Below, in pieces: positions 4,079-61,813 of a stretch of 64,000 nt of DNA. Origin of the DNA: Parcubacteria group bacterium GW2011_GWA2_40_143 (lineage in GTDB: Bacteria > Patescibacteriota > Minisyncoccia > UBA9983); the NCBI GenBank assembly GCA_000996035.1, contig LBYH01000002.1, forward strand, positions 8,979 to 72,978, written 5' to 3'. The position numbers and the translations under genes are program-made. The first letter of the stretch is position 1, and the number at the start of each line of letters is the position of its first letter. The notes under the pieces were generated by a model. The model searched no databases. It was not told the DNA's origin and saw nothing but the letters and a program-made list of their open reading frames with translations.

Positions 4079-5311
4079 TTATTTTAAAATTAGCGACCAA
4101 AGGATGCCGGTGGCCTTATCCACAAATATCAGATATTCACCGTTTTCGCTCAAAGACAGGTTTATGGCGTCAAACCCCAAATCTTTATACAAAAGCGCGG
4201 TGGATCCATCCGTAAAATCCTTCTTCCAAAGCGAATCATTGAAAGACACTTCTCCGCTGTACCACTCATCCGGATAATCGGCTTTGGGCAGAGATTTTGG
4301 CGCGGCGCAATAAATGGTTTTTGAGCTTGCGCCCCAAACGCATTTCTCCGGCAAGGTGTTAAAATCAAATTCAGGAGAAGAGTTGCTCGCGGTATCAAGT
4401 ATTCTCGTATTAAAATTACCGCTGCGGCTGTCACTCGCGCTGTATATAATCTTTGAAGCGTCGGGAGAAACTCTGGCCGTAAGGCCTTTTATTCCGCCCA
4501 AAATTCTTTCAAATTTTTCCGTTCTCTGGTTTAGAAAATAGAGATACCCGTCAGCCATGGCCGCCGGCTTGGTGATAAGAGTGATAATATCTCTGCTTGG
4601 CCATTCGGCGTTAAATTCGCCAAAGTTTAGACTAAAAATACTATTTTTATTTTCATTTTTAAAATTAGCCACGATTCCCTGATGTTCACCATCGGCAAGG
4701 ATAAGATAAAACACTTTATCCTCCACCGGCGACACGGCAGCCGCCTTGATGCCGGACGGCAAGAAAACTCCGCCAAGCTCTTTCGGCTCCCCAGATAAGC
4801 CGCTCAGATCGGCCAAAAAGTTTTTTACACTCCGTTCCGCCGCGGCGCCGGCTTCCTCAAAATATTTTATAAGAACTTTATTTGCTTTACTTGTCCAAAA
4901 CGTTTCAAAGCTTTTAAGTATAGTAGTATTGGTAAGGCGTTTTCTATTTTTGCCGGAATAGCCTACTTCGTAAACATTACCGGTGCTTCTTTCCATATAT
5001 CTTAAGGTGGTGCTGGAAACAGGCGCCGCCCCGCTTACTAAATCCTCCGTAAGCTGTATGAGCTGGCCTTTTTTAACAGGCGTATCTTGTCCGTCTTGAT
5101 CCACAAATCTGCCGGAACCGGTGCCGCCGCCGGGCTTAACGCTTGTTCTATCTTCTCCGCCGGAAGGAAATGGAGTGATACCGCCTTCGCTGCCACCAAC
5201 ATCAATCGGTGTCTTAAAAGTGTTTTGCCTTAGGAAAACAAAGAAGCCAAACCCCGCGAGAGCGAAGATTATTGCCGTTATTAAGATTATAAAAATTTCT
5301 TTTTTAGACAT
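4079..5311 (-). CDS. Secreted/membrane-anchored hypothetical protein, beta-propeller-like
   Basis: 410 aa; N-terminal TM/signal 'IFIILITAIIFALAGFGFFVFL'; the C-terminal half has a TolB/WD40-like repeat character. Part of the T4SS-like cluster. Confidence 0.4.
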   Translation of the reverse strand: MSKKEIFIILITAIIFALAGFGFFVFLRQNTFKTPIDVGGSEGGITPFPSGGEDRTSVKPGGGTGSGRFVDQDGQDTPVKKGQLIQLTEDLVSGAAPVSSTTLRYMERSTGNVYEVGYSGKNRKRLTNTTILKSFETFWTSKANKVLIKYFEEAGAAAERSVKNFLADLSGLSGEPKELGGVFLPSGIKAAAVSPVEDKVFYLILADGEHQGIVANFKNENKNSIFSLNFGEFNAEWPSRDIITLITKPAAMADGYLYFLNQRTEKFERILGGIKGLTARVSPDASKIIYSASDSRSGNFNTRILDTASNSSPEFDFNTLPEKCVWGASSKTIYCAAPKSLPKADYPDEWYSGEVSFNDSLWKKDFTDGSTALLYKDLGFDAINLSLSENGEYLIFVDKATGILWSLILK

Positions 5312-9225: not shown

Positions 9226-9867
9226 TTATCTATTCGCCACTCCTTTGCCACTTTCCCCCGGATTATACAGCTCGTAGAAAAGCTCTATAAGCTCTTCCGT
9301 ATTAAGTGGAGCCACTCTTATACCGGCGCGCGCCAGACCTTGTTGCACCACATCCGATCTCTGCTGAAGCTGGATTTTATACTGCTCAAACTTCTCGCCC
9401 ATGGAACCGCTTTTACCGTCACCGGCAATGCCTCCAAACAATTTGCCAAAGCTTCCCTTTTTGACTTCTATGGATACGTTGGTGTATGGCACGGTAATAT
9501 AGAAGGTCTTAGACATCACATTGGTAACTTGCACAAAATTTTTTACGAATTCAGCGTACTCTTTGGTCTGAATCCGCAAAAGCTCATTATCATGACTTTT
9601 TTCCGCTTCGCTTAAAATAGCCAAGTAGGGACCTATATCCAATTTTCTGGATTGAATAAAAAATTGCACCGGAAAATCAAGGGAGTTTAAAAAGTTTTGA
9701 TACTGAAGCACGATGGCGCTCTGTTCTTCTTCAGATTTAAGGGCGAAGTTCAAAGTGGAAGCCATAAGAATCATTCTTAAAGAATTATCTTTAAGAATGA
9801 TTACGCCGTCTCTTATTTCCTTTATCGGCACGAACTCTTGCGTTGATTTTGATGATACCGGTGACAT
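9226..9867 (-). CDS. VirB4 N-terminal domain fragment (Gram-positive TcpF/PrgJ/Orf16-type N-terminus)
   Basis: 213 aa; 'FVPIKEIRDGVIILKDNSLRMILMASTLNFALKSEEEQSAIVLQYQNFLNSLDFPVQFFIQSRKLDI' matches the conserved N-terminal region of Firmicutes-type VirB4. Ends in TAA at 9226-9228, in frame with the next ORF. Confidence 0.65.
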   Translation of the reverse strand: MSPVSSKSTQEFVPIKEIRDGVIILKDNSLRMILMASTLNFALKSEEEQSAIVLQYQNFLNSLDFPVQFFIQSRKLDIGPYLAILSEAEKSHDNELLRIQTKEYAEFVKNFVQVTNVMSKTFYITVPYTNVSIEVKKGSFGKLFGGIAGDGKSGSMGEKFEQYKIQLQQRSDVVQQGLARAGIRVAPLNTEELIELFYELYNPGESGKGVANR

Positions 9868-9891
9868 TTTTTTATTTTACCATACTTTCAA

Positions 9892-10311
9892 TTATTTTAT
9901 CTTACTTTTTATATCCAAACTCCAAGAAAGATCTTTGAGTCGGCTCTTGGTGAGCTTGGGAATAAATTCCTCTTGCATTACTCCTTCTCTTTGCCGTCTC
10001 GCGTCGCTAACGGTAAAACTGGCGGTTTTCATTTTTTCCTTTTTCCAGAGATATATTTTCGGCGAAGCGTAATATTTAAGACCATGCTCCACAATTTTTA
10101 TAAATGGCTGATTGTTTACTTTGTAAAATGCCAACGCTATCACGAAACCGCCTATCGGCAGACCCAAAAAAACCACCACCGGAAATGGCAAAACCACGTA
10201 AAGAAGGAAAATAAGACCCGCGCCGCCGGCAAGGTAAACAAACTGTTTCCATGTAAGCGGCCCAAAAAGCTTACTCTCAATTTCTATAAATTGTGGAACT
10301 TGAAAACGCAT
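9892..10311 (-). CDS. PrgI/TcpE (VirB3-like) small membrane protein
   Basis: 139 aa; two adjacent TM helices 'FVYLAGGAGLIFLLYVVLPFPVVVFLGLPIGGFVIALAF'; sits immediately upstream of VirB4 as in Gram-positive T4SS. Confidence 0.5.
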   Translation of the reverse strand: MRFQVPQFIEIESKLFGPLTWKQFVYLAGGAGLIFLLYVVLPFPVVVFLGLPIGGFVIALAFYKVNNQPFIKIVEHGLKYYASPKIYLWKKEKMKTASFTVSDARRQREGVMQEEFIPKLTKSRLKDLSWSLDIKSKIK

Positions 10312-15704: not shown

Positions 15705-16686
15705 AAACTTCTATGTCATAATCGTCAAAAAATTCCTGCATACTTAGACCGGCGTAATAAACTCTCTTTGCCTGATTTTTGTAAATATTGAAACCCGCCA
15801 AAGCCGATATGGGGTCGCTTGCAATCTTAGTCATATCATTTACTGCCGAACCGACATTGTTAATTCCATTCAAAATATCTAAATGTTGAGCCGACAAGCT
15901 TTTTGGAATATTTTTAATTTCCGAAATCTGCGTCGCGATTGTTTCATAAAAATTCGCCGAATCTTTCAAAAGGGAAATTTCTTCATCAATGTTTTCATCA
16001 TTTTTCTTTTTCCCAAGCATGCGTTCAAATATTTGACCTTCGTTTTCTTGAGTATTTTTTTTCTCGTCAAACATTGTTTTTTTTATTTCATCGGCGTAGG
16101 CTTTTATAGCCGCGCTCGTTTCGCTTTTGGTGAAATTTATATCAGAAGAATCGTAAGCATCTTTAATATTTTCTCCGGCCGATTCAATGTCGCCCATAAA
16201 CATATTTACCAACTCATTTTTGTCGTCTTCCGTAAGCGTTCCCTTTGCCGTTTTGAGCGCCAAATAATTAAGCATCATTTTTCTGGCTGATATTTGGGTT
16301 TTAGAATCGCTTATCCATTCATTCACGTCCGCGCCATTTGTTTTGTTTACAGGTAAATTACCGGAAAGCTCATCATCGGGGCCGGCTACGGTGGGATTGC
16401 GGCCGGCGGCAATTTCTTCTCCATCGCTCATGCCATCGCCATCGGTATCAGGATTTTTAGGATCTGTTTTCCAAAGCGCTTCTTCCCAATCAGCCAAACC
16501 GTCTCCGTCCGCGTCTTTGACCAATATTTCTTTGGCGGTCATGTTCACCGCCAAAAGAGAGTCGTCTTTCTCTGCCTCGTATGAAAGACTGGTGTTTTTG
16601 ATTGATTTATAGTAAAACCACCCTCCAAAAAGAAGGATAATAATTATCAAGAAAAGAACTATTTTTTTATTTGGTAAGATAGCCAA
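15697..16686 (-). CDS. Membrane-anchored protein with DxDxDG (thrombospondin type-3-like) calcium-binding repeats
   Basis: 329 aa; N-terminal TM 'IVLFLIIIILLFGGWFYY'; 'DADGDGLADWEE...DPKNPDTDGDGMSDGEE' repeats. First gene of the minus-strand cluster. Confidence 0.45.
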   Translation of the reverse strand: MAILPNKKIVLFLIIIILLFGGWFYYKSIKNTSLSYEAEKDDSLLAVNMTAKEILVKDADGDGLADWEEALWKTDPKNPDTDGDGMSDGEEIAAGRNPTVAGPDDELSGNLPVNKTNGADVNEWISDSKTQISARKMMLNYLALKTAKGTLTEDDKNELVNMFMGDIESAGENIKDAYDSSDINFTKSETSAAIKAYADEIKKTMFDEKKNTQENEGQIFERMLGKKKNDENIDEEISLLKDSANFYETIATQISEIKNIPKSLSAQHLDILNGINNVGSAVNDMTKIASDPISALAGFNIYKNQAKRVYYAGLSMQEFFDDYDIEVFE

Positions 16687-16767: not shown

Positions 16768-17535
16768 TTATTTGCTTATCAAACATTTCCAATTCTCAAT
16801 ACTCAGATCTTCCGCTCTCGCTTTTTCGCTTACGCCGCAACCGGTCAGAAAATCGGCATCAACTCCAAGATTACCTTTCAACATTTTTCTTTTGCTGGCA
16901 AAACCTTTTTTAACTATTTCAAAAAACTTTTCTTCAGAAATGTCTCTAAAAAATTCCTTGGAAATGTTTGAGATTTTTAAAACCGCCGAATCCACCTTGG
17001 GCTTGGGAGAAAAATTGCCGGCCGGCACCCTTCTCGCTATCTCCGGCCGGCCATAAACCTTAACGCTGATTGAAAGAAGACTCTCTTTTGTTCCCACAAT
17101 CCTCTCCGCCACTTCTTTTTGCACCATTAAAACTATCATTGAAGGCTGTTCGCTTTCCGGTTTATCGCTTAAAAAATTTCTTAAAAACTGAGAAGTGATG
17201 TAATACGGAATGTTAGCCACTACCTTATATCCCCCACCCACCATCAAGGCGTCGCCTTGATGGTGTAAAATATCGTCAAAAAGGAGTTCCAGTTTCCCGT
17301 TTTTTATTTCTGACGCAAATTTTTCTTTTAAAAACTCCGCAAATCTCTCATCTTTCTCCATCGCTATCACTTTTTTAGCCTTATTTAGCAAAGCTTCAGT
17401 AAGAATGCCCTTACCCGGTCCCACTTCCAAAATCACGTCGTTTCCATTTATTTCAGCGGCATTTACAATATCCTCCACCACCTTGCGTGAAGTTAAAAAA
17501 TTCTGCCCCAAACTTTTTTTAGCTTTTATCATCAT
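16768..17535 (-). CDS. rsmA: 16S rRNA (adenine1518/1519-N6)-dimethyltransferase RsmA/KsgA (start assumed at internal Met)
   Basis: 'KSLGQNFL' hallmark and SAM motif 'ILEVGPGKGILTEAL'. The track ORF extends to 17592 through the REP palindrome; the internal Met 'MMIKAKKSLGQNFL' is the more plausible start. Confidence 0.85.
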   Translation of the reverse strand: MMIKAKKSLGQNFLTSRKVVEDIVNAAEINGNDVILEVGPGKGILTEALLNKAKKVIAMEKDERFAEFLKEKFASEIKNGKLELLFDDILHHQGDALMVGGGYKVVANIPYYITSQFLRNFLSDKPESEQPSMIVLMVQKEVAERIVGTKESLLSISVKVYGRPEIARRVPAGNFSPKPKVDSAVLKISNISKEFFRDISEEKFFEIVKKGFASKRKMLKGNLGVDADFLTGCGVSEKARAEDLSIENWKCLISK

Positions 17536-17553
17536 CAGCAATTGCACCAAGGT

Positions 17554-17580
17554 TTGCACCAAGGTTAAACCTTGGTGCAA
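17554..17580. repeat. REP-like perfect palindrome TTGCACCAAGGTT-A-AACCTTGGTGCAA (REP copy 1; partial direct copy at 17543-17553)
   Basis: 27-bp self-complementary sequence overlapping the RAYT 3' end; the same sequence recurs at 18235-18290 and 19325-19350. Confidence 0.8.
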
Positions 17581-18230
17581 TAACTTAGCCAAAAATCAAG
17601 ATATTTTCTAAGCTCCAAAGTATCATCAAAATATTCAGGCAGAACGTTTTTATCTATAATCAATCCTTCTTTTCTTTCTAACCCTAAATAATCAATAAAA
17701 CTGGAGTATTTATATTGTTTTAAAAAATCATCGACTTTATCTTTATTAGAAATACCATTTTCTTTCCAGTGAGGATCGACCATTTTTACCGGATTTAGAT
17801 GAATATAAGCTAAAAGATACTTGAGATGATTGTCGTCATTAGCATGAATAGACTTGAAGCTACTTTCAAAAAGCGAGCCTGTTCTCTCATATTTTTTATT
17901 AAAAAACATAGTATAACCAGTCATCATTTTTTGCATAAACTTACTTACTCCACCCTCCCTAATTTCTTGAACTAGTACATGAAAATGATTGGGCATAAGA
18001 CAATAAGCCGATATCTTCACGATATCATCTTCTTTTTTCAAATTTAAAACACCCTCAAGAGTACTATCGCGCAAGTTGCTTATATGGACAGTGTCTTTAT
18101 TGTTGCAGATATACAAAAGAGAAATAAATCTTTCGTAGTCATCCTTTTTCAAAAAAATTTTTCTCTTATCCGTACCTCTTCCGTATAAGTGATAATTTTC
18201 TCCTATTGAAAAATCAATATTTCTAGCCAT
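17565..18230 (-). CDS. IS200/IS605-like Y1 HUH transposase, REP-associated tyrosine transposase (RAYT)-like
   Basis: 221 aa; HUH motif 'YCLMPNHFHVLVQE'; C-terminal 'AYIHLNPVKMVDP' resembling the RAYT catalytic-Tyr region; flanked on both sides by REP-like palindromes. Confidence 0.7.
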   Translation of the reverse strand: MARNIDFSIGENYHLYGRGTDKRKIFLKKDDYERFISLLYICNNKDTVHISNLRDSTLEGVLNLKKEDDIVKISAYCLMPNHFHVLVQEIREGGVSKFMQKMMTGYTMFFNKKYERTGSLFESSFKSIHANDDNHLKYLLAYIHLNPVKMVDPHWKENGISNKDKVDDFLKQYKYSSFIDYLGLERKEGLIIDKNVLPEYFDDTLELRKYLDFWLSYCTKV

Positions 18231-18234
18231 TTTT

Positions 18235-18290
18235 TTGCACCAAGGTTAAACCTTGATATAATTGGTTAAACCTTGCATTTTGGTGCTGAT
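18235..18290. repeat. REP-like palindrome, degenerate copy with an internal 20-bp partial duplication
   Basis: TTGCACCAAGGTTAAACCTT[gatataattggttaaacctt]GCATTTTGGTGC, immediately upstream of the RAYT start codon. Confidence 0.6.
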
Positions 18291-19264
18291 AAGCCTTTGA
18301 AAAACTCAACGACCTCAACAAAATCAGCTTCGTTGTACTTACAAGAGTTATCTAGGAAGCATCTGTCATCTTTTGATATTGGAAATTTATTACTTGATAT
18401 TAAATTAGATATTTTAATATCAGCCCCATTCCAATATCTTTCGCAAGAAAGATCTAGATTTTCCTTATCTACACCTAAAGCTGAGAGCGCTTCATCTGTG
18501 TTTCTAAAGCAAAAGATATTTCCATTATTTATAGTTTCTTTTTGAGCCGGCTCAAAACAAATTTTGCCGAAAGCATATTCCTCAAAACCCCTTGGTAAAG
18601 AGTTTTTGTTCATAAAATATAAATATGATCCAGTGGCTTTTGTACTATTTTCATTTATAAACTTAAAACTAGACAGGATATTGTTATATACCGCCTGCTG
18701 CTCTTTTTCTTTTGGATTATTAACCCCAGGATAAACAGAATAAAATATTTTAAATATTTTTACCCCTCTATTTATATAGATCTCCTGACTAACACTGTCT
18801 CCACCGCGCTGTGTTATATAAAAAGCATCATGATCGTTAAACGATTTTTCTTCTCCATGAGATACATCTCTTAATGTAAATGGTAAATCTTTTTCTCCGC
18901 TTTTATCAAATTCTTTTTTATAAAATTCCGAGTACCAATCTTTCGGACTTAATTTATTCAAATTATCATAAATGTATACACTTAAACGGTACGGGATACC
19001 TTCGTAGGGAATGCCATCTTCTTGATCCGTTATGCGTACATGATTGTTATCCCCAACAACAAGCTTTAAAAAATCTGGATATCTAATTTCAAATAAAAGT
19101 CTGTTGTCTTTATATGTTTGCCATCCTATATTTTCAATAACATGAATGTCACGCCCAGCTGATGTGGTGCTTTTTTCACTATTAATTTTGTCTCTCTCCT
19201 CTAAAAAATAAATAAAAAGAACACCAACAATAATCGCCACTAAAAATAAAATTATTTTTTTCAT
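18266..19264 (-). CDS. Secreted hypothetical protein with a Cys-rich C-terminus, located between REP copies (possible REPtron cargo)
   Basis: Start assumed at 'MKKIILFLVAIIVGVLFIYFL' (signal anchor); the track ORF extends to 19294. No recognisable domain. Confidence 0.45.
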   Translation of the reverse strand: MKKIILFLVAIIVGVLFIYFLEERDKINSEKSTTSAGRDIHVIENIGWQTYKDNRLLFEIRYPDFLKLVVGDNNHVRITDQEDGIPYEGIPYRLSVYIYDNLNKLSPKDWYSEFYKKEFDKSGEKDLPFTLRDVSHGEEKSFNDHDAFYITQRGGDSVSQEIYINRGVKIFKIFYSVYPGVNNPKEKEQQAVYNNILSSFKFINENSTKATGSYLYFMNKNSLPRGFEEYAFGKICFEPAQKETINNGNIFCFRNTDEALSALGVDKENLDLSCERYWNGADIKISNLISSNKFPISKDDRCFLDNSCKYNEADFVEVVEFFKGLSAPKCKV

Positions 19265-19324
19265 ATTTTTACATTTTTTACAATAAAAAATCACCTAATC
19301 GTATTTTATCATATTTTTGATTTC

Positions 19325-19350
19325 TGCACCAAGGTTAAACCTTGGTGCAA
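19325..19350. repeat. REP-like palindrome TGCACCAAGGTT-A-AACCTTGGTGCA (REP copy 3)
   Basis: Perfect 25-26-bp palindrome identical to REP copy 1, in the 7-nt-wide gap before pcrA. Confidence 0.8.
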
Positions 19351-30759: not shown

Positions 30760-30830
30760 TGCGGGATGGGAGAATCGAACTCCCGACCTCGGTTTGGAAA
30801 ACCGATATTATACCATTTAACTAATCCCGC
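30760..30830 (-). tRNA. tRNA-Gly (anticodon UCC), no encoded CCA
   Basis: Cloverleaf read by hand: acceptor GCGGGAT/ATCCCGC, anticodon stem TCGGT/ACCGA, loop TTTCCAA, T-arm GGGAG-TTCGATT-CTCCC. Confidence 0.8.
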
Positions 30831-31237: not shown

Positions 31238-31308
31238 TCGGGCTGCTGGGAATTGAACCCAGTCTACCTGCTCCCAAAGCAGGCGTACTACCGGTATACG
31301 ACAGCCCG
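31238..31308 (-). tRNA. tRNA-Pro (anticodon UGG), no encoded CCA
   Basis: Acceptor CGGGCTG/CAGCCCG (C1-G72, typical of bacterial tRNA-Pro), anticodon stem CCTGC/GCAGG, loop TTTGGGA, T-arm CTGGG-TTCAATT-CCCAG. Confidence 0.75.
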
Positions 31309-31765: not shown

Positions 31766-32121
31766 AGTAATTTTAAACTATTTCTTAAGTAAAAAGTTGC
31801 ACGTGCAACTTTTTATGCTCTTATTTTACCTTTTATCCGATTGTTTCACTGCGTGTGAAACAATCGGATAAAAGGTTGTCATATGAAGAATATCTTTAAT
31901 TAAAAATTTAAATAAAGGCTCTAAATAAGGTTGTTTTTTCTTTTTTTATATTATAAAAGACGAACTATTAGATATTTTATGGTCACTTATTGGACACTCT
32001 ACAAACATCTAATGTACATAACCTGTGGATAGTGTGGATAACTTCTTTATTTTAAGCCTTTTCTAAAAGACGTTATTTCTAACAGACATACATATTTAAA
32101 GGACAAACTCGCTTCATTCGT

Positions 32122-32195
32122 GTGTCCTCGGAGGGACTCGAACCCCCAACAACAGGTTCGAAGCCTGTCATGATATCCATTTCACCACGAGGACA
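32122..32195 (-). tRNA. tRNA-Arg (anticodon UCG), no encoded CCA
   Basis: Acceptor GTCCTCG/CGAGGAC, anticodon stem ACAGG/CCTGT, loop CTTCGAA, T-arm GGGGG-TTCGAGT-CCCTC. End positions are +/-1 nt. Confidence 0.65.
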
Positions 32196-34173: not shown

Positions 34174-34881
34174 TCACACCCACTCAATCGGCTTTTGGCC
34201 GGTTTTGAGAAGGTATTCGTTGGTTTTGGAGAAATGCTTGCAGCCGAAGAAGCCGGAATTGGCGGAGAAGGGAGAAGGGTGAGGGGCTTTAAGGATAAGG
34301 TGTTTGCTTCCGTCTATCAAACTTTCTTTTTCTTGAGCGAATTTACCCCAAAGAAGGAAAACGATATTTTCTCTTTTGTCGGAAAGTGCTTTAATGGCGG
34401 CATTGGTCAATTTTTCCCAGCCGAGATTGCGATGAGAAGCGGGAGAATTGGCGCGAACGGTAAGGATTACATTAAGAAGCAAAACACCCTGCGTTGCCCA
34501 GCCTTCCAGATTGCCATTTTGCCTTATCCAAGGACTGTCCTTGGATTTTTTTATACCCAAGTCGCTTTCTATTTCTTTAAATATATTTATAAGTGATGGT
34601 GGAGGGTTAACACCACTTGGCACTGAAAAAGACAATCCATGCGCTTGCCCTTGACCATGATATGGGTCCTGTCCAAGAATAACGACCTTAACTTTATCAA
34701 AAGGCGTGAGATTGAAAACGTTGAAAATCTGTTGGGGCGGGGGATAAACAATAATGCCGGACTCCAATTCCTCCGCCAGTTTCTTCTTCAACTCTTTCAT
34801 ATATTCCGCCCCAAATTCATCGGACAAGACCTTTTTCCAGCTTTCTTCAATTTGAGGGTTAAGTGAATTATCTGCTTGCAT
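34174..34881 (-). CDS. ung: Uracil-DNA glycosylase (family 1)
   Basis: 'KVVILGQDPYHGQGQAHGLSFSV', 'GVLLLNVILTV', 'HPSPFSA'. Confidence 0.9.
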   Translation of the reverse strand: MQADNSLNPQIEESWKKVLSDEFGAEYMKELKKKLAEELESGIIVYPPPQQIFNVFNLTPFDKVKVVILGQDPYHGQGQAHGLSFSVPSGVNPPPSLINIFKEIESDLGIKKSKDSPWIRQNGNLEGWATQGVLLLNVILTVRANSPASHRNLGWEKLTNAAIKALSDKRENIVFLLWGKFAQEKESLIDGSKHLILKAPHPSPFSANSGFFGCKHFSKTNEYLLKTGQKPIEWV

Positions 34882-39285: not shown

Positions 39286-40932
39286 ATGTCATGGCTTTCA
39301 AAAGTTTTCAAGAAAAAAGAAGTACCATTGTCAAGGTTGAACCTTGACAATGGAGTCAATATTGAGCAGTCCAAGCCACTGGTGCTGGTTATTATAGACG
39401 GCTATGGCGTGCCTCAAGACGGATCGGAATCACCATGGCGAAACGCCGCCAAGCCTAATTTTGAAGAAATAGAGAAGCATTATCCATTTACCACACTGCA
39501 AGCCTCGGGCATAGCGGTAGGCTTGCCATGGGGAGAGGCCGGCAATAGCGAAGTGGGGCATCTCACTATTGGTGCCGGCAAGGTTATTTATAATTATCTG
39601 CCAAAAATATCAACGACTATCAAAGACGGTTCTTTCTATGAAAATAAGGCTTTCATGAAAGCGGTTTCTCAAACAAAGGCCGGCGACGGCGCTTTGCATT
39701 TTCTCGGTCTTTTTTCCAGCGGCACTGTTCATGCTTATTTTGAACACCTCTACGCGCTTCTTGAGCTGGCCAAGCGAAATGGTGTAGATAATAAAACATA
39801 TCTTCATCTTTTCACTGACGGCAAAGACGCCTATGAACGCGAAGGAGCAGACTTCTACGACAAGCTGGAAGATGATCTTAAAAAAGATTTTCCAAATATT
39901 AAAATCGCCTCCATAATGGGCCGCAGCTTTGCCATGAATAGAAATGAAGAATGGGGGAAAACAGAAAAAGCCTATAATCTTCTTATTAAAGGCGAAGGAG
40001 AAAATTTTTCTTCGGTAAAAAGTTATATTGAAAACAATTATGCCGAAGGAATCACCGACAGCGCCATAGCTCCAGCCGCCGTTATAGACAGAGAAGGAAG
40101 AATTAAAAGCGGCGATAGCGCGATCTTCTTTAACTTCAGAGAAGACAGCGCTCGCCAACTCACGGAAGCTTTTATTAAGCCGGATTTTGATAAGTTTAAT
40201 AGAGAAAAGCTGAATGATCTCACCTTTGTTACTATGACGGAATATGATAAAAACCTTCCAACACTTGCCGCTTTTAAATCCGCCGAAGTGGCTAACCCGC
40301 TGGCAAAACTGGTATCTGAAAGCGGTTTATCCCAACTTCACATCGCTGAAACCGAGAAATACGCGCATATAACCTTTTTCTTAAACGGTGGCAGGGAAAC
40401 GCCTTTTAAGGGCGAAGACAGGCTTCTTGTGCCATCACCTAATATACACCCGTACAGTCAAGCGCCAGCCATGTCTTCTTCTGAAATAGCAAAAAGGATA
40501 ATAAGCAATCTTGGTAATTATGATTTTATTGCCGCAAACTTCGCCAACGCGGATATGGTGGGACACACCGGCGACTTTGATGCCACCACTAAAGCCATAG
40601 AAACCATAGATTCTCGGATAGGTGAGCTTAAAAAAGCGGTTTTGGACATTGGCGGAACACTTATTGTAACGGCCGATCATGGCAACGCGGAAGAAAAATT
40701 ATACAAATCCACGGGTAACAAAAAATCTGAGCACTCTTTAAATCCGGTGCCTTTTTACGTAATTGGCAATGATTTTAAAAAAGAAACAGCTAAAACTCCG
40801 GAAGAAATATCGGCAAATTATAGAAAAACAAAAGGCGCTCTCATTGATGTGGCTCCAACAGTATTAAGCTTGCTTAAAATACAAACTCCCGCCGAGATGA
40901 CTGGCAGGAGTTTGTTGGAGAAATTGTTTTAA
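39286..40932 (+). CDS. gpmI: 2,3-bisphosphoglycerate-independent phosphoglycerate mutase (the N-terminal ~25 aa contain a REP-like palindrome; the true start may be at a downstream GTG)
   Basis: 'LVLVIIDGYGV', 'GNSEVGHLTIGAG', 'ADMVGHTGDFDATTKAIETID', 'TADHGNAE'. Confidence 0.9.
   Translation: MSWLSKVFKKKEVPLSRLNLDNGVNIEQSKPLVLVIIDGYGVPQDGSESPWRNAAKPNFEEIEKHYPFTTLQASGIAVGLPWGEAGNSEVGHLTIGAGKVIYNYLPKISTTIKDGSFYENKAFMKAVSQTKAGDGALHFLGLFSSGTVHAYFEHLYALLELAKRNGVDNKTYLHLFTDGKDAYEREGADFYDKLEDDLKKDFPNIKIASIMGRSFAMNRNEEWGKTEKAYNLLIKGEGENFSSVKSYIENNYAEGITDSAIAPAAVIDREGRIKSGDSAIFFNFREDSARQLTEAFIKPDFDKFNREKLNDLTFVTMTEYDKNLPTLAAFKSAEVANPLAKLVSESGLSQLHIAETEKYAHITFFLNGGRETPFKGEDRLLVPSPNIHPYSQAPAMSSSEIAKRIISNLGNYDFIAANFANADMVGHTGDFDATTKAIETIDSRIGELKKAVLDIGGTLIVTADHGNAEEKLYKSTGNKKSEHSLNPVPFYVIGNDFKKETAKTPEEISANYRKTKGALIDVAPTVLSLLKIQTPAEMTGRSLLEKLF
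39325..39353. repeat. REP-like 29-bp perfect palindrome CCATTGTCAAGGTT-G-AACCTTGACAATGG inside the gpmI 5' region
   Basis: 14-bp arms around a single centre base; the same sequence occurs in tsaE at 57084-57110. The core CAAGGTT-N-AACCTTG is shared with the RAYT-flanking REPs. Confidence 0.75.
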
Positions 40933-57013: not shown

Positions 57014-57496
57014 ATGAAAAAAAGGATAATCACAAAGAATCTTGAGGAGTTTATCAGCCTCGTTCAAATTATCGCCAAGAACTCATTGTCAAGGTTGAAC
57101 CTTGACAATGGAGGTGGCGCGACCGTGCTGGCGCTTTATGGCGAATTGGGCGCGGGTAAAACCACTTTCGCGCGCGCGTTTGCCGAAACATTGGGAGTAA
57201 AAGAAAAAATTAAAAGTCCGACTTTTATAATTTTCAGAAAATCAAAAATAGAAAATAAGGAATGGAGCGAGAAAGTTTTTGAAAATTTTTATCATTTTGA
57301 TGTTTACAGAATTCATAATGAAAAAGAAATTTTAAATCTCGGCTGGGAAGAAATAATTTCTAATCCACGCAATATTGTTTTGGTGGAGTGGGCGGATAAA
57401 ATAGAAAGTATCTTGCCTAAAAACCATATTGAGGTAGTCCTCAAACATAAAGAAGAGGGAAAAAGAGAAGTGGAGGTGATGATGGCAAAGGTGTGA
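57014..57496 (+). CDS. tsaE: tRNA threonylcarbamoyladenosine biosynthesis protein TsaE, carrying an in-frame 9-codon palindrome insertion
   Basis: 'VLALYGELGAGKTTFARAFAETLGV', 'SPTFIIF', 'HFDVYR', 'VLVEWADK'. The palindrome-encoded SLSRLNLDN precedes the P-loop. Confidence 0.8.
   Translation: MKKRIITKNLEEFISLVQIIAKNSLSRLNLDNGGGATVLALYGELGAGKTTFARAFAETLGVKEKIKSPTFIIFRKSKIENKEWSEKVFENFYHFDVYRIHNEKEILNLGWEEIISNPRNIVLVEWADKIESILPKNHIEVVLKHKEEGKREVEVMMAKV
57084..57110. repeat. REP-like 27-bp perfect palindrome CATTGTCAAGGTT-G-AACCTTGACAATG inside tsaE
   Basis: Identical to the gpmI copy (39325-39353); in the coding frame it reads LSRLNLDNG. Confidence 0.75.
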
Positions 57497-60925: not shown

Positions 60926-61813
60926 ATGTTTTATCTCCTCCACGGCCAAGACACATATAGAAGCAGAAATAAGCTCAATGAGCTTATTTCGCATTTTAAA
61001 ACCAAAGTTTCCGGCTTGGGTTTCTTTGATATGGACAAAGAGAGTTTTAGCGAAGCCGACTTTGAGGAGTTGCTTAAAACCAAAAATCTTTTTGAGAGAA
61101 AATACGTGACGGTGTGTCGCCGGCTTTTAGAAGATAAAATTTCGTCCGGATTTATAATTAAAAATTTGGAACTTTGCGCCGGCTCGGAAAATATCTTTCT
61201 GTTTTGGGAAGGGGATCTTGAGCAAGAACTGGTGGAAGCGGCGGAAAAGCGCGCTGTCAAAACGCAAAAGTTTGACTTACTAGACGGAACGCGTTTGGCT
61301 AAGTGGTACGCGGATAAAAAATTACCGGTCAAAGTTGCCGAAGCCATTAAGAAAGAGTGTGGAGCCGATTTGAGCCGCGCGGAAAAGGAGATAGAAAAAT
61401 ACGAACTTGGAGACCCCTGTTTTGGAGACTTAGTCTCCAAAACAGGGGGAGTGCCGGCTTACAATCCTTTTGCCATTTGCGACGCTTTCGCGGAGAAAAA
61501 TAAAATGAAGGCGTGGATTATTTATCATCAAGCGTTAAGACAGGGTGTTTCGGCTGAAGAAGTGTTTTTTAAAATCGCATGGCAGATAAAAAATTTACTT
61601 TTGGTAAAGGGGCTACAAAAGTTTGGCTCGCCAAATATGGAAAAAAGTTCAGGCTTGCATCCATTTGTATTTAAAAAAACTTTGCGGGCGGCGCAAAATT
61701 TTACCGAAGGAGAATTGGAAAAATATTCTTATGAGATGCTGAAAATTTATCACGAAGAAAGAAGAGGGAGAGCGGAGTTGTCGGTAGAATTTGAAAAAAT
61801 GCTCATTAGTTGA
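60926..61813 (+). CDS. holA: DNA polymerase III delta subunit
   Basis: 295 aa; 'FYLLHGQDTYRSRNKLNELI' is HolA-like; clamp-loader fold length. Confidence 0.55.
   Translation: MFYLLHGQDTYRSRNKLNELISHFKTKVSGLGFFDMDKESFSEADFEELLKTKNLFERKYVTVCRRLLEDKISSGFIIKNLELCAGSENIFLFWEGDLEQELVEAAEKRAVKTQKFDLLDGTRLAKWYADKKLPVKVAEAIKKECGADLSRAEKEIEKYELGDPCFGDLVSKTGGVPAYNPFAICDAFAEKNKMKAWIIYHQALRQGVSAEEVFFKIAWQIKNLLLVKGLQKFGSPNMEKSSGLHPFVFKKTLRAAQNFTEGELEKYSYEMLKIYHEERRGRAELSVEFEKMLIS

Follow-up and report, generated by a model that had tools for sequence, protein, structure and literature searches.

Most work on repetitive extragenic palindromes (REPs) and the REP-associated tyrosine transposases (RAYTs) has concerned Proteobacteria, whose repeats are extragenic and carry a GTAG tag. 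In such systems, represented by the REP-BIME elements with TnpA(REP) of Escherichia coli and by the REPINs of Pseudomonas, hairpin palindromes of 20–40 nt are dispersed over the genome and bracket a Y1 HuH tyrosine transposase gene, an architecture described as the REPtron (PMC8266576; PMC5581495). Group 3 REPs of Stenotrophomonas are perfect palindromes with loops of 3–5 nt (PMC8266576). Intragenic REPs tagged by GTAG or CGTC have also been reported, for example in Opitutus terrae, where they are read in frame in tRNA synthetases, DNA ligase, Uvr proteins and PolI; those at the N-termini of open reading frames (ORFs) may be non-coding (Di Nocera et al. 2013, PMC3733652). Rickettsia palindromic elements (RPEs), which the same paper summarises, are palindromic selfish repeats in frame in conserved genes, with the decorated proteins remaining functional (PMC3733652). 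Here, we describe a hairpin element of related character in the Candidate Phyla Radiation (CPR, Patescibacteria): a 27-bp perfect palindrome inside the tsaE gene of Parcubacteria group bacterium GW2011_GWA2_40_143, located in a 64,000-nt stretch of contig LBYH01000002.1 (hereafter the window). We consider it probable (about 0.8) that this palindrome belongs to a family of REP-like hairpins which owes its dispersal to a RAYT-like Y1 transposase or has at least been inherited together with one, and that its genic copies were filtered for an open frame and tolerant connectors. This reading was favored because the identical 27-mer was present twice in the window, its core occurred at no fewer than 113 loci, and the core flanked Y1_Tnp genes. 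The two exact copies and their host genes are as follows.

57014..57496, + strand: tsaE (t6A ATPase subunit), host gene; Pfam TsaE match; P-loop GELGAGKT from residue 43.
57084..57110, unstranded: 27-bp perfect palindrome (hairpin element) in tsaE; codes for part of S24, LSRLNLDN and part of G33; predicted RNA fold -17.8 kcal/mol, z=-4.9.
39286..40932, + strand: gpmI (2,3-bisphosphoglycerate-independent phosphoglycerate mutase), second host ORF; Pfam Metalloenzyme and iPGM_N matches.
39325..39353, unstranded: 29-bp perfect palindrome containing the identical 27-mer (39326-39352); in the gpmI ORF in the same frame, PLSRLNLDNG; predicted RNA fold -19.9 kcal/mol.

The element at 57084-57110, CATTGTCAAGGTTGAACCTTGACAATG, is a perfect 13+1+13 palindrome translated as S-LSRLNLDN-G, its ends being codon position 2 of Ser24 and codon position 1 of Gly33. 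At the composition of the window, palindromes with 13-bp arms were expected about 0.0015 times per 64 kb, and the pattern was found in 0 of 100 shuffles of the window. Its host ORF was identified as TsaE by Pfam (PF02367, E=3.8e-32) and has the Walker A motif GELGAGKT. The AlphaFold2 (AF2) model of the protein (pLDDT 85.4) matched the TsaE structures 1HTW, 5NP9 and 6N9A_E in Foldseek with TM-scores of 0.74-0.81. These results bore out an earlier note on this DNA, which had placed a 27-bp perfect palindrome within tsaE. The conserved TsaE N-terminal helix is encoded 5' of the palindrome, which is therefore truly intragenic. Besides, the identical tsaE sequence was present in two independent metagenome assemblies (L118 and L119) and the protein was found on 24 contigs, so that an origin of the tsaE palindrome in assembly can be dismissed. 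An assembly artefact or adaptor was also excluded for the family in general, as the flanks differed at each copy and the copies came from many independent assemblies and were restricted to certain taxa.

The tsaE and gpmI 27-mers are identical and unlinked, 18 kb apart; neither this second copy nor the related ksgA palindrome described below had been included in the earlier note. The gpmI palindrome begins approximately 40 nt into the ORF, and it was absent from all 120 GpmI homologues retrieved, whose identity did not exceed 68%. These homologues had 5-13 residues before the LIILDG motif versus 34 in the window ORF. Its absence from the homologues, together with their later starts, places the gpmI copy either in the 5' leader or in an N-terminal extension peculiar to this lineage. 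The identity of the two 27-mers suggests recent copying or homogenisation within this genome.

The other family members of the window were located at or near a transposase gene, as listed below.

17565..18230, - strand: RAYT-like Y1 (HuH) transposase gene; Pfam Y1_Tnp, E=3.9e-10.
17554..17580, unstranded: 27-bp palindrome TTGCACCAAGGTTAAACCTTGGTGCAA, a sister variant; at the 3' end of the RAYT gene, overlapping the stop codon.
18235..18255, unstranded: shortened copy TGCACCAAGGTTAAACCTTG, directly 5' of the RAYT start codon.
19325..19349, unstranded: 25-bp palindrome TGCACCAAGGTTAAACCTTGGTGCA; intergenic, past an unannotated ORF that adjoins the RAYT gene.
17239..17265, unstranded: 27-bp perfect palindrome CACCATCAAGGCG-T-CGCCTTGATGGTG; in frame (HHQGDALMV) in the ksgA/rsmA ORF 16768-17592 (- strand); same CAAGG/CCTTG stem top.

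Thus, the RAYT gene is bracketed by the first two of these palindromes, and three copies of the TGCACCAAGGTTAAACCTTGGTGCA variant, one of them shortened, lie around it. The ksgA palindrome has a predicted RNA fold of -21.2 kcal/mol, and its host ORF has an RrnaAD Pfam match. A CAAGG...CCTTG stem top was common to all six family members in the window. The core CAAGGTT-N-AACCTTG, which the earlier note had recognised in both the tsaE palindrome and the palindromes around RAYT, was confirmed. The tsaE palindrome is a copy of a dispersed, RAYT-associated hairpin family; the window RAYT itself is flanked by the sister variant and not by the 27-mer. The 342-aa ORF at 18266-19294 (- strand) showed no Pfam match and has a hydrophobic N-terminus; as it is bracketed by the repeats 18235-18255 and 19325-19349, it could be a REPtron passenger.

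The best NCBIfam match of the window transposase was REP_Tyr_transpos (REP-associated tyrosine transposase), and both the HuH motif (MPNHFH) and the catalytic Tyr (YIHLNP) were conserved in nine CPR homologues. PDB sequence searches with the RAYT alone and with a nine-sequence profile gave no significant match (the best, E=0.36, was to ISDra2 TnpA in the HuH region only), and the transposase assignment therefore rests on Pfam. The core TGTCAAGG was located 20-50 nt off both gene ends at eight loci with Y1_Tnp genes (L055, L040, L084, L018, L066, L091, L096 and L023), whose transposases were 45-55% identical to the window RAYT. In addition, the exact 21-bp CPR core was found at several loci of the gammaproteobacterial thiotrophic gill symbiont of Bathymodiolus heckerae (L024, L027, L033 and L080). 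One of these contigs, L024, has the core at 5011, 5507 and 5739, with a fragmented RAYT homologue (38% identical, in two pieces) between copies. The symbiont copies suggest either horizontal transfer of a REPtron or a contaminating contig. A scan of viral contigs for the 21-mer gave no match, and thus nothing pointed to a phage as vehicle.

A scan of one genome per species for TGTCAAGGTTNAACCTTGACA yielded at least 113 loci, with at least 42 assemblies represented among the matches listed (80). Nearly all of the matches listed were from Patescibacteria (Zambryski-, Lloyd-, Taylor-, Nomura-, Vogel- and Gottesmanbacteria, and metagenome-assembled genomes (MAGs) labelled Saccharibacteria), to which the Bathymodiolus thiotrophic symbiont is added; a single Lloydbacteria MAG accounted for at least 10 of the loci among them. 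In the family, the CAAGG/CCTTG stem top was invariant, the loop was variable with 3-5 nt, and the lower stem varied in sequence yet remained paired. The commonest form was TGTCAAGGTT-N-AACCTTGACA plus 1-3 further complementary bases. We examined location, frame and flanks in a sample of 129 exact copies from at least 42 assemblies. The bases just outside the 21-mer were complementary at the first position in 70% of copies versus 33% expected, and stem extensions of at least 4 bp were found in 18 copies versus about one expected. Predicted RNA hairpins ranged from -14 to -36 kcal/mol, with z-scores of -4.7 to -10.6. DNA uptake signal sequences occur at about one motif per kb. A reading of the element as such a signal was rejected, as its density is too low: the 64-kb window has 2 exact copies among 6 family members, and most of the related 20-kb loci lack it altogether.

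The family resembles REP/RAYT systems in its short hairpins, which appear to be dispersed in the genome, and in the Y1 transposase gene that these bracket, and resembles group 3 REPs of Stenotrophomonas in its perfect palindromes and short loops. It differs from them in several ways. The CPR hairpin has no adjacent GTAG (or CGTC) tetranucleotide, a feature of groups 2 and 3; its transposase forms a distant clade; approximately 37% of the sampled copies were intragenic, whereas REPs are normally overwhelmingly extragenic; and one core is common to many CPR lineages rather than being species-specific. The element is also like RPEs, whose bacterial host is reduced and host-dependent, in that it is inserted in frame in conserved genes without disrupting them (tsaE here and many housekeeping genes in other MAGs), but it is much shorter (21-29 bp), unrelated in sequence and RAYT-associated. 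RPEs are about 100–150 bp long (30–50 aa), some of them are CGTC-tagged, and no transposase is known to accompany them. The intragenic GTAG/CGTC REPs are similar in being translated as in-frame parts of known proteins, but they belong to another, tagged family in which intragenic copies are a minority and often dimers encoding 20–30 aa, compared with single units of 7-10 aa in CPR (PMC3733652). With IS200/IS605 elements the family shares the transposase fold and superfamily (Pfam Y1_Tnp), a weak similarity to ISDra2 TnpA in the HuH region and, by analogy, probably the use of folded single-stranded hairpins for recognition; unlike these, CPR hairpins would spread without the transposase gene, and both flanking hairpins are one palindrome, not distinct left and right ends. 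Because in-frame intragenic REPs and RPEs have been described (PMC3733652), the phenomenon itself is not new, and the remark in the earlier note that an in-frame intragenic hairpin is unusual did not stand. What is new is a GTAG-less perfect-palindrome family, its host range (many CPR lineages with one core), a distant transposase clade and the high intragenic share in the sample. Nothing specific on RAYTs or palindromes in CPR/Patescibacteria was found in the searchable literature. The family is a concrete case for the survival of selfish hairpins in compact genomes, for the remodelling of protein loops and for a possible host function of RAYTs or hairpins.

By analogy with TnpA(REP) and the IS200/IS605 enzymes, the transposase would recognise the folded single-stranded hairpin and cut and rejoin adjacent DNA, thereby spreading copies. 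As CPR genomes are gene-dense, many copies would land in coding sequence, and genic copies would persist only in a stop-free frame and in tolerant surface connectors. In the sample, 48 of 129 copies (~37%) were in ORFs of at least 200 aa, beyond the initial start codon and distributed over the length of the ORF, and 10 more were in ORFs of 100-199 aa. Pfam-confirmed host genes coded for LeuRS, Ile/ValRS, ArgRS, LigA (NAD-ligase), RNase R, RecJ, UvrC, AsnB (asparagine synthase), Dus, PurL and an aminotransferase. Judging from these ORFs, about a third of the sampled copies would be translated as parts of essential enzymes, such as aminoacyl-tRNA synthetases, ligase and TsaE. Of the three reading frames of the core, one invariably includes TGA, another is open only with C or T as the central base, and the third is always open (TG TCA AGG TTN AAC CTT GAC A, encoding SR[L/F]NLD). 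The always-open frame was used in 43 of the 48 copies in ORFs of at least 200 aa, compared with 2:1 expected from stops alone (binomial p=2e-4). This excess indicated that peptide tolerance or target preference adds to stop avoidance, and it agreed with the earlier suggestion that stop-free, frame-preserving copies are favored. For annotation, short inserts of the SRLNLD type in CPR proteins should be regarded as repeat-derived. Two of the host ORFs had unusual domain arrangements. The LeuRS ORF at L100:4612-7512 (- strand; 967 aa), which has an in-frame hairpin copy, has its catalytic and editing domains separated by an inserted DUF559/restriction-endonuclease-like domain (residues 278-381). 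In the 1155-aa ORF at L082:1515-4979 (+ strand), ClpB-type AAA_2/D2-small domains are joined to a dihydrouridine synthase domain at the C-terminus, and a hairpin copy lies in the Dus part; this ORF is either an unusual fusion or a gene-boundary artefact.

At the tsaE site, the AF2 model has a helix at residues 10-28, a loop at 29-36 and a strand at 37-43. On this model, the element residues 24-33 are predicted to close helix 1 with its last turn and to make up most of the loop that connects it to the strand before the P-loop. Solved TsaEs (B. subtilis and others) aligned from residue 34-35 on, the N-terminal part of the window protein being ~7-8 residues longer, whereas T. maritima TsaE aligned through the element region without a gap and has an equally long connector. 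The segment is thus naturally variable in length. We retrieved 120 TsaE homologues (53-69% identity) by protein, so that the set was unbiased toward intact palindromes. Their connectors showed several states: no hairpin (EILTERRTENDA and similar); a perfect palindrome of 25-27 bp (L115, where it encodes AMSRLNLDIG); a kept stem with a changed loop, which we call type B (ATGTCAAGG-TCTCG-CCTTGACAT, NLMSRSRLDI, with further loops TTTCG, CGAAA and TTTTG); stems lengthened to 16-20 bp and reaching into conserved host codons in L198 and L124 (T-A-P mirrors G-A-V/L); a nested hairpin; and a decayed form (L201). The nested case, L199:301-786, has a hairpin in a hairpin, CCATCAAGGTT-C-CGCCTTG-CCG-CAAGGCG-A-AACCTTGATGG (-30 kcal/mol), which encodes PSRFRLAARRNLD; from its sequence it looks like a second element, or arm growth, within the first.

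Compared with hairpin-free relatives, the net length was +2 aa in the window and type B proteins, +7 in P0041 and +8 in P0078; these varied lengths point to several events or much remodelling, not to one clean 27-bp insertion. The earlier count of exactly nine inserted codons was therefore appropriate only relative to short-loop TsaEs such as B. subtilis YdiB, and did not hold against the nearest relatives or T. maritima. A clean recent event that filled an empty site can thus be set aside; the loop bears hairpins of various forms in many lineages. Because relatives with no, intact or variant hairpins were all found at this loop, the site is old or has been hit recurrently, and the flanking Asn and GGGA common to the window and type B suggest an old, orthologous site. 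Presence and absence among orthologues followed the earlier proposal: close orthologues either lacked the element or had hairpin DNA at the site, rather than all encoding the same residues by non-palindromic DNA. It might be argued that SRLNLD is an ancestral or functional protein sequence whose DNA symmetry is incidental, as related peptides (MSRSRLDI, MSRRNLDI) occupy the same TsaE loop in many relatives. However, those relatives also use hairpin DNA, many other TsaEs have unrelated sequence at the loop, and identical nucleotides are found in genes for unrelated proteins as well as between genes. Such identity at the DNA level led us to rule out a protein motif, for which hardly any likelihood is left. 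On the whole, the tsaE result mainly clarifies the case: an intact gene whose insert occupies a connector of variable length.

The lengthened stems bear on another explanation, that the tsaE palindrome arose by local inverted duplication or by quasi-palindrome correction (template switching in replication) of host sequence and is not mobile. Perfect hairpins whose arms reach 9 bp or more and whose loops do not exceed 7 nt numbered 18 in the window versus 2.15 in shuffles; the stems of L124 and L198 extend into host codons; and complementarity past the core was common and variable in sequence. Template switching would account well for palindromes that reach into host codons and for symmetric changes, as in L124, L198 and holA. 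The holA ORF (60926-61813, + strand; DNA polymerase III delta) contains two perfect in-frame palindromes. One, of 35 bp with 17-bp arms (61414-61448), is unique and encodes DPCFGDLVSKTGG in a variable linker, with a net gain of 4 aa versus 103 homologues; its right arm encodes host-like VSKTGG and its left arm is the inverted copy. The other, of 25 bp (60966-60990), encodes RNKLNELIS where relatives have REKLNELVS, and differs by precisely two palindrome-perfecting substitutions. On sequence grounds, both look like products of local inverted duplication or template switching and not like a dispersed repeat. A palindrome of such origin should be unique, with one arm of host sequence; this is what the holA palindromes showed, but the tsaE core recurs at unlinked loci and in other genomes. 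Local formation leaves unexplained the identical 27-mer in an unrelated gene 18 kb off, the exact core at 113 or more loci and its association with transposase genes; it could explain at most the outer 2-6 bp of the stem. A purely local origin is therefore excluded for the core, and we regard it as very improbable for the tsaE element.

Whether hairpins are maintained was examined with 14 aligned hairpins (15 stem pairs), using 500 shuffles and slid alignments as controls. The five top stem pairs were invariant and 7 of the 15 pairs changed on both sides. Doubly changed cells numbered 15 versus 6.9±2.1 in shuffles, a value reached in 0 of 500, and the covariation score was 0.238, whereas slid controls gave 0.107 or less. 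In a comparison of eight distinct type-B TsaE genes that share 77-92% nucleotide identity, variation was found at 2 of 24 sites of the hairpin versus 146 of 426 elsewhere (p=0.007); synonymous variation was found in 0 of 5 hairpin codons versus 43 of 87 elsewhere (p=0.058). These signals fit a structure-dependent element without proving selection, because template switching can also give palindromes symmetric changes. They raise the possibility that the hairpin is a selected cis-acting element, working as structured DNA or mRNA or as a site bound by a protein such as a domesticated RAYT; this would be compatible with a REP-like origin. The retention of the 21-bp core across many CPR lineages, the compensatory stem changes at the orthologous TsaE site, the low variation of hairpin nucleotides in type B, the frame bias beyond the stop-codon expectation and the stability of the predicted hairpins are consistent with such a role. 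Nevertheless, many close TsaE and all 120 GpmI relatives lack the hairpin, host genes and positions are heterogeneous, and density is low, with no further copy in the 20-kb flanks of related TsaE loci. Besides, the conservation test is a small sample of borderline significance, and symmetric changes can be kept by template switching without selection, as the holA palindromes appear to show. A selected role thus appears unlikely, though it deserves some weight. An Rfam scan of the whole window detected three tRNAs only and gave no match at the hairpins. Each arm contains TTGACA and could be read as a -35 promoter element, but no -10-like hexamer 17 bp downstream of it was seen by eye in tsaE, where a consensus promoter scan was not run. 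A bolder proposal, which we consider quite unlikely, is that nucleotide constraint in essential genes preserves a CPR-wide hairpin with the invariant CAAGG/CCTTG stem top, either because it is recognised by a Y1 transposase that was domesticated for a host function (replication, repair or defence) or because it acts as a structure in the mRNA; together with growth by template switching, this hairpin would also be a recurrent source of CPR loop residues.

Several observations weigh against dispersal of the family by a RAYT-like transposase with passive tolerance of genic copies. GTAG was found within 20 nt in only 7 of 129 copies and CGTC in 8 of 129, and positional information outside the stem was absent, leaving no guide tetranucleotide. 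The transposase scored 45 bits against the NCBIfam RAYT cutoff of 80, and in the 64-kb window no RAYT was flanked by the exact 27-mer, the flanks there being the other outer-stem variant. At tsaE, the net gain versus the nearest relatives (60-69% identical) was merely 2 aa, and these relatives, whose loops are remodelled, gave no clean filled/empty pair of very close sequences. The nucleotide conservation in type B hints at something past passive tolerance. Finally, we infer mobilisation by the transposase from architecture and by analogy.

The genome is generally rich in perfect palindromes, several of them in ORFs, for example at 16531-16555, 18540-18557 and 34526-34546 (ATCCAAGG...CCTTGGAT). 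A 26-bp perfect palindrome, TAAAAAGTTGCACGTGCAACTTTTTA, was found at 31790-31815, and 12 nt further on, at 31828-31876, a hairpin whose perfect arms are 22 bp long (ACCTTTTATCCGATTGTTTCAC / GTGAAACAATCGGATAAAAGGT); the two lie between genes in a cluster of three tRNA genes (30760-30830, 31238-31308 and 32123-32194). Another hairpin, with 15-bp perfect arms (AATCATTCTTAAAGA-ATTA-TCTTTAAGAATGATT), was located at 9769-9802, at the overlap of the ORFs 9226-9867 (- strand) and 9713-10072 (+ strand).

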